Positions 37,960-40,740 of a stretch of 64,000 bases of DNA are shown here, piece by piece (positions within the stretch are counted from its first letter, which is position 1; each line of letters begins with the position of its first letter). Both the position numbers and the translations under genes were made by a program. The notes under the pieces were generated by a model. It did not search any database and was not told where the DNA came from. It saw nothing but the letters and a program-made list of their open reading frames with translations. The DNA lies in the NCBI GenBank assembly GCA_964603635.1, contig CAZRVH010000001.1, forward strand, positions 51,386-115,385. The letters run 5' to 3'. This stretch comes from an uncultured Candidatus Peribacteria bacterium (GTDB lineage: Bacteria; Patescibacteriota; Gracilibacteria; Peribacterales; Peribacteraceae).

Positions 37960-40740
37960 ATGAATCATATAGAGCATGCGGACGCTCCGGTCACCCCCGA
38001 AAAACCTGTGAATGCGGGGCTGAACCCGGAAGAAAGCAGGGCATATGCAGCCGCGCTTAATCAGATCCTGACGGCCACGAATCTGGAAATCATTCCATTC
38101 GGAGCACAGAACGAACCGTTGCGCCTTTCGCAATGCGAAGGGCTCGAGGCACTGCGAGATAGCGTCCGCCAAAACGAGAGTCTTTCCCACATCATTCAAC
38201 CGGGAGGCACGGGAAAAACGCGCGAAGGGATTGCGGCTGCGTACGCAATGCATCGTCTGGGAAACGACAGCCTTTATGTCGTTCCGTCGCAGCAGGCGGT
38301 GACGGATTTCGCTGGAAAAGCGAGAAGTCTGTGTCCCGATATGGATGTCGGCGTCGTGTACCAATCCGAGAAACGGATCGGCAGGCTGACATTCATTACC
38401 TATGCATCACTCTTGCGATGCATGCTGGGAAAAAGCGCGGAAGCGGAAGCGCAGGTATTCGAGGAAAAGGAAGAGCCGGATGTGGCGCATGCTGACAAGC
38501 AAAAAATCGTCATCGATCCTGGGCGGTACAGGCTTGTCATCTGGGACGAAGCGCACAAATACCTCACCGTGACAGCGCAGCGCTTGCTGGAACTTTTTAA
38601 CAGAAGCATCAACGTCGGTTTTACAGCGACGCCGCGATATTACGAAGGCAAAGAAGTCGCAATCGTATTCGGTAGGAAAATCCATGAGCTCAATTTGGAG
38701 ACCGCCATCGAAAGAAAGGAAATTTCGGATTTCCGAAACATCCTTATTACGACCGACGTCGTAACGGGTCTGGAGCTTGTCTCCCCGGAACAGGAAGAAA
38801 GCGCCCAAGTCGCGAAAGCGATCAATGTGGCGACTCGCAACAATATCTTCCCCGGTCTCTACAAAGATGCCAGGATCACGGTGAGTGGGAAGGAATACAC
38901 GTTGCTAGGAGAGCCGACGCTGGCCTTCTGCGCGAGCATCGAACACGTTCACGATCTCGCCAAAAGATTCAACGATACGCTTTTGCCCGCGCTGAAAGAG
39001 GACGAGGAATTCCGTTCCATCCTGCGCGCAAAGGGAATCGACCCCGATGCCGTGGAGCAAATCGCGGCGCCCATTCATACAGGCAGCAGTGGCGAACATG
39101 CGGGGATGAGTCTTCAGGAACGAAACGCATTGGTGGAACGCTATCATGCGAGAAAGATCCTTGTTCTCGTCTCTACGTCCGTCTTGCAACAGTCTTTCGA
39201 TAGCCAAATGACATCCGTTGTCATCGACACGGTGCCCAGGCAGACGTATGTCGGAGTGGGACAGGCGGGAATGCGGGCGCTTCGTTTTTTGCCCGGCAAG
39301 GAAATTGCGTTCCTCATCAATACCCAGGATGCCGACCATCGCTCCCTCACCTTCCTCGATTTCCAGGCAAGGCGCGGCGCCGAAGAAGGCATCGCCATCG
39401 AACTCGCCCATGCGGCTGGACAGGTAAGCCAAAGTGCGCCTTCGAGCGAGAAGGAAAAAGTGATAGGCAAGAAAAATCAGACGTCGGCGTATAAGCTGAC
39501 ATACGGAATGGAGTTGATGGATCTCTCCCAGAAGAGGTTTTCCGTCGAACACATGTACTACATGCCGGAAACGTCTTCCATGCATTTCCATTTCAACTCC
39601 GCGGGTTTCCAAAGGTTGAACAGGTTGATTCTCGATATCGCGGGCGGCGATAAGGAAGCGGTCTTCGCTTTCATTGATCTTTTGCAGATTTGGATCGGCC
39701 GCATTACCCGCCACGTCGGATTCCAGGAATTCGGCGATGAGAGCTTTGAAGAGGCGGTTGTCGAAAAGTTGGATGACATCGCGTTCGAGGCATTGATGGA
39801 TCTGGTGGAAAAAGTGCAATCGGGCGCGATTGAAACATGGTCCAGGTTCTCCGCCCGTTTTCAACAGGACTTCCGTCGTTTCTGCAGGGTCGCGAAGCGC
39901 GATGAGGTTCCGTCCATCGACATCCATCTTCACGAGCCCATTGAAAACGAGCATATGCAAGGCACCTTGGATGAGGATGACGCATTCAGTTCAACGGAAC
40001 CCCTTTTCATCGACCTGCATGAAACCATTCCGTCATCCGATAGTACCGGGGTTGAATTCGCGGAGAACGCAGAGCTGCGCGGTAAAATGTACAAAGTACT
40101 TCGATCACTCAGTTATCGCGAGAGGGAAATCTTAAAACTGCGATACGGATTGGAAGACGGATATTCCTATACCCTTGAAGAAGTAGCTCATATTTTCAAG
40201 GTAACGAGAGATAGGATCCGGCAAATAGAAGCGAAAGCGATCCGGAAATTACAAATGCCTTCGCGGACCAGCGAGCTCTCAGGTTTCTTTGCCGATAAGA
40301 CGAACAAAGGATACGCCCTGTTGCCGGAGCCCCAGTCATTGCCGAAAAGGGAAAAGGGAGTGCTCGATGAGGCGTACGTCGAGCAGGGTAAGAAGAACAG
40401 GGAAATCATCGTCGATCTTCTCTCGCCGCTCATCGCCGCAAAGAAAACCATATTCGATGTCTTGCGAGGAAATGATGAAGAAATCCCTTTGTGGATTCTC
40501 AATGAACTCGGAGCCATCTCTCCGGATTTGGAAGCTGTGTGCAGTGTCGAGCGCACGTATAGCGACGCGCTTATGGCAACGGTCTTTGATCAGCATGTGT
40601 TGGCCCGTTTCAAGCAGAAGTTGATAGGATTGAGGGTATCTGACCGCGATAGGGCTGCAGTCGATGAGGCAATCCATAGATTGCAAACGTGCATGCTGCG
40701 CTTCCAGGATATGGGAGGAAAGTCGCTCCGTGAGATGTAA
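37960..40740 (+). CDS. SF2 DEAH-box helicase fused to an RpoD-type sigma-70 region 4 domain
   Basis: Helicase motifs: I 'PGGTGKTR', II 'VIWDEAHKY', III 'GFTATPR', V/VI '[22 protein letters not shown]'. Residues ~700-765, '[54 protein letters not shown]', are a near-canonical sigma-70 region 4.1/4.2. Confidence 0.85.
   Translation: [926 protein letters not shown]

Follow-up and report, generated by a model that had tools for sequence, protein, structure and literature searches.

The 64,000-nucleotide (nt) stretch analysed here, called the window, comes from an uncultured Candidatus Peribacteria bacterium (contig CAZRVH010000001.1, positions 51,386 to 115,385, forward strand). At positions 37960 to 40740 it carries one gene that joins a superfamily 2 (SF2) helicase core to a C-terminal half resembling a sigma-70 factor. 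An original prediction, made from the sequence without database searches, described a single uninterrupted open reading frame (ORF) of 926 amino acids (aa), and the frame indeed runs from an ATG start with no internal stop. The four helicase motifs that it quoted are present as PGGTGKTR (aa 81-88), WDEAHKY (aa 195-201), TATPR (aa 222-226) and QAGMRALR (aa 435-442), and Pfam annotation scores ResIII, Helicase_C and Sigma70_r4 in the same chain. Its limits for the sigma segment (nt ~40069-40260) are correct at the end (aa 767, nt 40260) and ~40 nt early at the start, which lies at aa 717 (nt 40108); the ~170 residues said to follow the sigma peptide number 159. The protein is composed of the following parts.

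37960 to 40740, plus strand: helicase-sigma fusion ORF, 926 aa, ATG start, zero internal stops.
38029 to 39399, plus strand: SF2 DEAH (ResIII-type) translocase core, aa ~24-480, based on Pfam, AlphaFold2 (AF2), Foldseek and motif residues.
39580 to 39909, plus strand: middle domain of four helices (GDxEA...QxWI...WSRFSxRF), aa ~541-650, probably a sigma region 2 in degenerate form.
40006 to 40290, plus strand: acidic linker resembling region 3.2 (aa ~683-700) and RpoD-grade region 4.1/4.2 (aa ~701-777).
40369 to 40719, plus strand: family-specific helical tail, aa ~804-920, kept in nearly all family members.

Homologous proteins were searched for with aa 1-690 as the query, which returned ~23 proteins of 44-58% identity, most of them with precomputed ResIII and Sigma70_r4 matches. 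An exhaustive phmmer search of 1.84 billion cluster representatives gave 35 clusters at E <= 1e-30, many of which are fragments. Hidden Markov models (HMMs) built for the helicase (aa 20-480), the middle domain (aa 540-655), region 4 (aa 700-778) and the tail (aa 795-920) recover an identical, collinear four-part layout in nearly every family member. Because ~23 independent proteins share this architecture, an assembly chimera can be ruled out. The idea that misassembly or a frameshift spuriously merged a helicase gene with a separate sigma gene would find some encouragement in the relatives at L012 (6395-9283), L016 (4-2311) and L018 (6935-9760), three of ~14 family loci, which fall into two or three ORFs; the full-length fusions in independent assemblies, with all four domains collinear, refute it, and its probability is negligible. 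The split copies are pseudogenes or assembly errors, and P0034 and P0035, considered as stand-alone halves, proved to be fragments of them. The earlier observation of a fusion architecture is thus confirmed as genuine.

The helicase-sigma family is real but rare. Members are found in Candidatus Peribacteria, in Rickettsiales and on unassigned metagenome contigs. A scan of species-representative genomes located relatives in Candidatus Peribacteria, which belong to the Candidate Phyla Radiation (CPR), and in Rickettsiales metagenome-assembled genomes (MAGs); an alignment-based scan of genome contigs found 8 loci where a single-protein scan found none, and JGI metagenomes supplied two loci with relatives. 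No relatives were detected in IMG/VR, no full-length match was found in phage and plasmid records, and the window genes other than the fusion have no match to the Peribacteria or Rickettsiales loci. In its gene content the window does not resemble CPR bacteria, and neither does a sister strain. Nine more distant ResIII helicases also end in Sigma70_r4 (P0051, P0053, P0071, P0076, P0084, P0098, P0104, P0144 and P0153). One protein, P0031, bears an extra repetitive C-terminal extension of ~350 residues (aa 920-1266). The literature searched contains no description of a helicase-sigma fusion, in agreement with the original prediction, which was aware of none; the architecture does recur in sequence databases, where its members are labelled 'sigma-70 family RNA polymerase sigma factor' or 'superfamily II helicase'.

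The N-terminal part displays the features of SF2 enzymes of the ResIII/DEAH type, namely motifs I (GxGKT), II (DEAH), III (TAT) and VI (QxxGRxxR) and two RecA-like lobes. Pfam ResIII matches aa 54-226 (E 3e-14), and Helicase_C matches aa 380-443 at 23.9 bits, barely over its cut-off of 23.5. Residues K86, D196, E197, H199, T222, A223, Q435, R439 and R442 are invariant or nearly so in a 20-member alignment. The AF2 model of the entire fusion protein has a predicted local distance difference test (pLDDT) score of 74, with the helicase core mostly at 80-94, and the Foldseek neighbours of the core are the Type ISP enzyme LlaBIII, RadD, XPB, SauUSI and HsdR (E 1e-10 to 7e-14). The PHROG family phrog_16, 'DNA helicase', matches the fusion protein at E 1e-26. 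The enzymes with the nearest folds, XPB, RadD, HsdR and LlaBIII, are all DEAH motors of the ResIII type: they move along duplex DNA, and a recognition module distinct from the motor directs them to their target. The fusion differs from them in its low sequence identity (14-19%), in the lack of a nuclease or methyltransferase domain or partner, and in the sigma-like nature of its targeting module. A Type I, III or ISP restriction enzyme was rejected as an identity, since neither the fusion protein nor the adjacent genes provide a nuclease, a methyltransferase or a specificity partner. The ATPase motor is intact, and the N-terminal part is predicted to be an ATP-driven double-strand-DNA translocase of the XPB/RadD/HsdR type.

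The C-terminal half is most readily recognised at region 4. In sigma-70 factors this region is a helix-turn-helix that reads the -35 element; region 2 binds the beta-prime clamp helices and both recognises and melts the -10 element. The claim of an RpoD-like region 4.1/4.2 is borne out by Pfam Sigma70_r4 (PF04545), which scores 55.5 bits against a cut-off of 24.1 over aa 713-765 (E 3.9e-15), and by phmmer against the PDB, in which aa 695-778 align to region 4 of SigA/RpoD with E down to 4e-19. This alignment reaches back into the 3.2 linker, where a 10-residue segment of the fusion pairs with LGDFIPDDDA. Further towards the N-terminus, the NCBIfam model TIGR02937 (sigma70-ECF) spans aa 606-765 and scores 53.8, above its cut-off of 42.9. 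The AlphaFold model of aa 532-926 has a pLDDT of 76, and nearly all of its top 50 Foldseek matches are full-length sigma-A chains, typically over 250-340 aligned columns and with E down to 4e-7; region 4 alone accounts for ~70 residues. A profile search of the PDB with the middle domain places SigI1, SigF and SigI6 in the top five at non-significant E values of 0.15-0.6.

Distant relatives provide a bridge between the middle domain and recognisable sigma factors. Two of the distant fusions, P0076 and P0104, also score Pfam Sigma70_r2 (E 7e-14 and 6e-10), and the C-terminal 270 residues of P0076 form a textbook sigma factor with regions 2.1-2.4, 3 and 4. The family middle-domain profile aligns in register over 86 positions with the Sigma70_r2 segment of P0076 at 12 bits, with an E of 2e-5 computed against three sequences. 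A free-standing version of the sigma-like half also exists: P0042, of 424 aa, consists of a region 2-like domain, region 4 and the tail without a helicase (L022 4769-6043; L023 6001-7275). In groundwater contigs its gene is flanked by pyrF and aroA, and no helicase gene adjoins it; full-length Peribacteria fusions share this neighbourhood. Because of P0042, the sigma-like half can be regarded as an autonomous module. The middle domain is probably a derived, degenerate region 2, as far as alignment and modelling indicate, and the C-terminal half as a whole is probably a divergent sigma-70 module made up of a region 2-like domain, a 3.2-like linker, a near-canonical region 4 and then a helical tail. 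The last ~130 residues are a conserved helical domain that has no relative in Pfam or the PDB; its model comprises a single long helix and a bundle of helices.

Region 4 of the fusion was aligned to residues 540-613 of Escherichia coli sigma-70. It retains R554, L573, E574, R584, R586, R588, Q589 and K593 of that factor, with a conservative change at E585 (E585D). Throughout the family, the contact positions R554, L573, E574, R584 (R/K), E585, R586, R588, Q589 and K593 (K/R) are kept in 17-24 of 26 region-4 domains, despite an overall region-4 identity that falls to ~35%. Judged from this alignment, the -35-contact residues of the sigma-like half are under selection. The window region 4 is 77-83% identical to RpoD-like region 4 domains, a comparison set chosen for similarity to it, and 60-66% identical to its nearest family members; several relatives display the same star-like pattern, with a region 4 nearer to RpoD than to their own kin. 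As RpoD region 4 is near consensus, this pattern needs no recent capture from a host rpoD.

The fusion therefore resembles the sigma-70 family in its near-canonical region 4.1/4.2, in its 3.2-like linker, in a four-helix domain at the position of region 2 and in a TIGR02937 score above cut-off. It differs from that family in the 480-residue SF2 translocase in front and the 130-residue tail behind, in a region 2 too degenerate for Pfam, in having no recognisable region 1.1 or 3, and in its residence on a mobile cassette.

A candidate target for region 4 lies directly in front of the gene.

37925 to 37953, plus strand: predicted promoter of the fusion gene, with a -35 element TTGACA (37925-37930), a 17-nt spacer and a -10-like element TAATTT (37948-37953).

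The ATG of the fusion begins 6 nt after the -10-like element. A TTGAC[A/T/G] sequence stands 35-39 nt upstream of the start codon in seven of 11 loci (the window, L001, L003, L006, L011, L012 and L018), each time with a ~17-nt spacer, an AT-rich -10 and a start codon 6-10 nt further on. A -35 in this position bears out the annotated start, and it follows that the transcript of the fusion gene is, from the sequence, probably leaderless. The promoter moves with the fusion gene, and its -35 is of the type that the region 4 of the fusion should read. The original prediction, whose interpretation is partly supported, offered two inferred mechanisms, docking on RNA polymerase and targeting of -35 elements. 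The retention of the DNA-contact residues family-wide, together with the TTGAC -35 before the gene in those loci, lends support to the second of these.

Taken further, the same observations could describe a genuine sigma factor. The C-terminal half would then replace sigma-A on the core polymerase at TTGAC promoters, including its own, and the XPB-like motor would open or clear the promoter; as a corollary, the cassette could express itself in any host. Sigma factors of the extracytoplasmic function (ECF) group typically autoregulate from a promoter before their own gene, and the conserved promoter of the fusion gene is comparable. The sigma-like order of region 2-like domain, 3.2-like linker and region 4, the TIGR02937 score, the free-standing sigma-like half, the distant fusions that score Sigma70_r2 and the presence of XPB among the nearest helicase folds all fit such a factor. 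Its region 2, however, is so degenerate that it does not score, with no recognisable motif for core binding or for melting of the -10; the fusion gene is not accompanied by regulon genes, and the -35 is of the housekeeping type, for which a second sigma factor is not obviously needed. Replacement of sigma-A is accordingly rather improbable, and it is less probable still, a distant prospect, that the protein is a sigma factor with a built-in ATP motor that would serve as a bacterial counterpart of promoter opening driven by TFIIH from a self-expressing, single-gene mobile cassette.

The hexamer of the predicted -35 is scarce in the window. TTGACA occurs three times against 26.3 +/- 4.8 expected, a ~9-fold depletion, and one of the three is the -35 of the fusion gene. 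The sites include 4603, 14874 and 37925, and TTGAC-bearing hexamers are among the most depleted words of the window. CTTGAC (3 against 27.5 expected) and TTGACT (3 against 21) are also depleted, as are CTCGAG and GGGCCC. Such depletion could result from a restriction system or from selection that removes stray -35 sites.

The fusion gene is the sole gene of a small integrative cassette in the 3' end of doxX, a small membrane-protein gene, a setting that the original prediction did not notice. The cassette extends from ~37851 to 40764 (~3 kb), and the features that delimit it are listed below.

37790 to 37850: left 61-nt direct repeat, att-like, a duplicated doxX 3' end that is displaced from the gene; its minus-strand reading is ITSYISLRKAYGKGVRLAALI followed by a stop.
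40765 to 40825: right 61-nt direct repeat, the present doxX 3' end, read on the minus strand as LASYVLLRKAYGKETRLAAIQ followed by a stop.
40755 to 41043, minus strand: target gene doxX (DoxX_2 family), disrupted by a ~100-nt internal deletion, as revealed by blastn against the related-strain contig L020.

Repeat searches and alignments show that the two 61-nt copies lie just outside the ORF and share 85% identity, including an exact core of 23 nt; in minus-strand reading, each corresponds to the final ~20 codons of doxX together with its stop. The right copy is more host-like on its gene-proximal side, which matches the expectation for attL and attR. The contig L020, located via 90%-identity cluster mates of two flanking window genes, is syntenic with the window from 35.6 to 46.8 kb at 72-96% DNA identity. 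In this strain the helicase is absent and an intact 127-aa DoxX_2 gene directly abuts the upstream convergent gene. Two marks of an integrative element, flanking direct repeats that duplicate the target and an unoccupied related site, are therefore present. The GC content of the cassette (~0.52) deviates from those of its flanks (0.42-0.44 and 0.31-0.39) and of the genome (~0.58). The fusion gene can be considered mobile because of the duplicated doxX 3' end, the insert-free related strain, the deviant GC content and the recombinase and prophage neighbours that it has elsewhere. In the window copy of doxX, the loss of ~100 nt of sister-strain sequence leaves ORFs of 24 and 60 codons.

Comparison of window positions 36900-43000 with L020 positions 1387-4720 reveals a strain-variable hotspot between a DUF1697 gene and a PadR-like gene. 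In the window it is occupied by the cassette, by a 253-aa PD-(D/E)xK-like ORF and by low-GC genes whose products are a 171-aa protein (phrog_4575), one of 80 aa and an SDH Clp-like protease (phrog_11747). In L020 it holds different genes, including an antitoxin-type gene of the SocA_Panacea type. The cassette-free strain L020 carries a distant homologue of the upstream 253-aa ORF in the equivalent position. Neither this ORF nor the downstream 171-aa, 80-aa and SDH-protease genes occur in any of the related loci, and they were rejected as partners of the fusion. The window also contains a tmRNA gene at 31250-31658 (plus strand) with a long tag peptide, AKTSVRTLGARFQSALASMTPAYAFAA. An EamA transporter gene and a small GIY-YIG ORF occupy the low-GC stretch after it (31800-33400, 0.39-0.49), which may represent an island of its own. 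A tmRNA-linked island was rejected as the setting of the cassette, as the tmRNA gene lies 6 kb off and no repeat ties the two together.

The surroundings of the fusion vary from locus to locus, and no consistently adjacent gene was found across them. In the Peribacteria loci L001, L003 and L011, the fusion lies near aroA in either orientation with a large serine recombinase adjoining, and L001 additionally carries a tyrosine integrase. The recombinase homologue of L003 is an uncalled ORF of ~540 aa (9523-11151) directly after the fusion gene, which matches the recombinase of L001 and a fragment in L011. In L005 the fusion is situated inside a prophage, between a second large helicase and lysis/tail genes, and in L006, L007 and L009 it is solitary between housekeeping genes. 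Among the distant fusions, P0104 (L024 6001-9264, on a 1.1-Mb contig) is near TraG/VirD4-like, SRAP, LexA-like/ImuB and Mrr genes, of conjugation and SOS type, and P0053 is solitary.

These settings bear on an explanation that dispenses with RNA polymerase altogether. Region 4 would then be a sequence-specific helix-turn-helix (HTH) that loads the helicase on element DNA for replication, excision or transfer. The position of the fusion as the sole gene of an att-flanked cassette, its proximity elsewhere to large serine recombinases, a tyrosine integrase and prophage or conjugation genes, and the phrog_16 match are all compatible with a role in element maintenance. An analogy is offered by the alpha protein of P4, which has an origin-binding domain of its own. 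The ATPase BrxL of BREX systems, the nearest published analogy found, is reported to pair an N-terminal SIGMA-HTH-like domain with an MCM-like ATPase (PMC12839542); it differs from the fusion in its ATPase class, in an HTH that is N-terminal and only structurally sigma-like, and in belonging to a multi-gene system. Several findings count against element maintenance, namely the lack of relatives in IMG/VR and of full-length matches in phage or plasmid records, and the fact that ResIII-type SF2 enzymes are not typical replicative helicases. The 2.9-kb cassette, moreover, has a single TTGACA and no iterons or repeated TTGAC sites, and an entire sigma-like half with its region 2-like domain and 3.2-like linker exceeds what DNA binding would need. 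This explanation is unlikely overall.

Defence against phages is suggested by the profile match of region 4. MzaA, the best NCBIfam/PADLOC model for the fusion, is the sigma-like protein of the validated mzaABCDE anti-phage defence system (PMC9523054), and it is likewise a long protein with an RpoD-like region 4 at its C-terminus. Identity with MzaA was rejected: the model NF041931 covers only aa 668-779 of the fusion, leaving the N-terminal 660 residues unmatched, it scores 97 bits against a cut-off of 800, and no mzaB-E genes (MutL-like ATPase, Z1, nuclease, AIPR) are nearby. The fusion could nonetheless be a sensor in which an RpoD-like region 4 mimics the host sigma factor, such that phage anti-sigma factors or flap binders (AsiA-like) would trigger the translocase. 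A region 4 nearer to housekeeping RpoD than to its own relatives would suit a decoy of this kind, and so would the MzaA match, the location of the cassette in a strain-variable hotspot (with an SDH Clp-like protease here and SocA_Panacea in the related strain) and the broken-up state of several copies as a sign of turnover. The proximity to RpoD, however, can stem from a near-consensus RpoD region 4 and from a comparison set selected by similarity. The fusion lacks a nuclease, toxin or other effector domain, only isolated domains are matched by PADLOC models, the MzaA score is far below its cut-off with mzaBCDE absent, and many loci are solitary amid housekeeping genes. A phage sensor is therefore about as doubtful as the sigma-A replacement.

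On the reading tentatively favoured here, small integrative elements carry the fusion as a translocase that is targeted to promoters or to RNA polymerase. The sigma module would act as the targeting device of the motor and direct it to TTGAC-type -35 elements, to the sigma-binding sites of core polymerase, or to both. The helix of region 4.2, with its retained residues, would read a TTGAC-type -35, and region 4 may additionally dock on the beta-flap of the core RNA polymerase. Hydrolysis of ATP and translocation at promoters or on the polymerase would then remodel or displace transcription complexes, and the -35 of the fusion gene itself would be a likely first target, which would result in autoregulation. 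The biological role may lie in conflicts among host, mobile element and phage, or in maintenance of the element. Counted in favour of this reading are the domain matches (among them the TIGR02937 score above cut-off), the invariant ATPase motifs, the retained -35-contact residues, the closeness of the window region 4 to RpoD, the TTGAC -35 in seven of 11 loci, the depletion of TTGACA in the window, the distant fusions with a scoring Sigma70_r2, the free-standing sigma half, the signs of mobility and the lack of a conserved partner gene.

A number of observations weigh against this targeted-translocase reading. The guess of the original prediction that the stretch before region 4 may be a degenerate region 2 has the register alignment with P0076, TIGR02937 and Foldseek on its side, but Pfam Sigma70_r2 is silent in all 25 family members and hhalign of the middle domain against group-1 region 2 gives a non-significant E of 0.07; against full-length RpoD-like sequences it is likewise not significant. 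The 2.2 (DLIQEG) and 2.3 (FSTYAxWW) motifs are not recognisable in the middle domain, and given this and the Pfam silence, docking on the beta-prime clamp helices is doubtful. Region 4 is more variable across the family than the helicase core, and some members, P0019 and P0015 for example, have a degenerate one. The TTGAC -35 is absent in four of the 11 loci, and where conserved it is no proof of self-recognition, because TTGACA fits any housekeeping promoter. The cassette contains no recombinase or integrase, its only ORF being the fusion, and the genes beside doxX also differ in L020, which is thus not a perfect empty site. Among defence-system models, only those for isolated domains find a match.

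A motor brought to the transcription machinery would have functional parallels. RapA (HepA) and Mfd are SF2 ATPases that act on RNA polymerase, and RapA does so near the RNA exit channel and the beta-flap, where sigma region 4 sits. By functional analogy only, the fusion may resemble them as an SF2 motor that is brought to RNA polymerase in order to recycle or displace it. Only the SF2 core is in common, and RapA and Mfd have polymerase-binding domains of their own and are encoded by chromosomal housekeeping genes.

Promoter opening by sigma-70 holoenzymes requires no ATP. A sigma module with a tethered motor, if true, would represent a new coupling of ATP hydrolysis to promoter or polymerase recognition, unlike that of RapA and Mfd, which use their own docking domains. 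Since the 3-kb cassette consists of a single, probably leaderless gene with its own predicted promoter, cloning and testing it should be straightforward. The helicase-sigma family also provides a second, simpler setting, besides MzaA, in which to study why copies of region 4 of the housekeeping sigma are found in accessory or defence-type loci.

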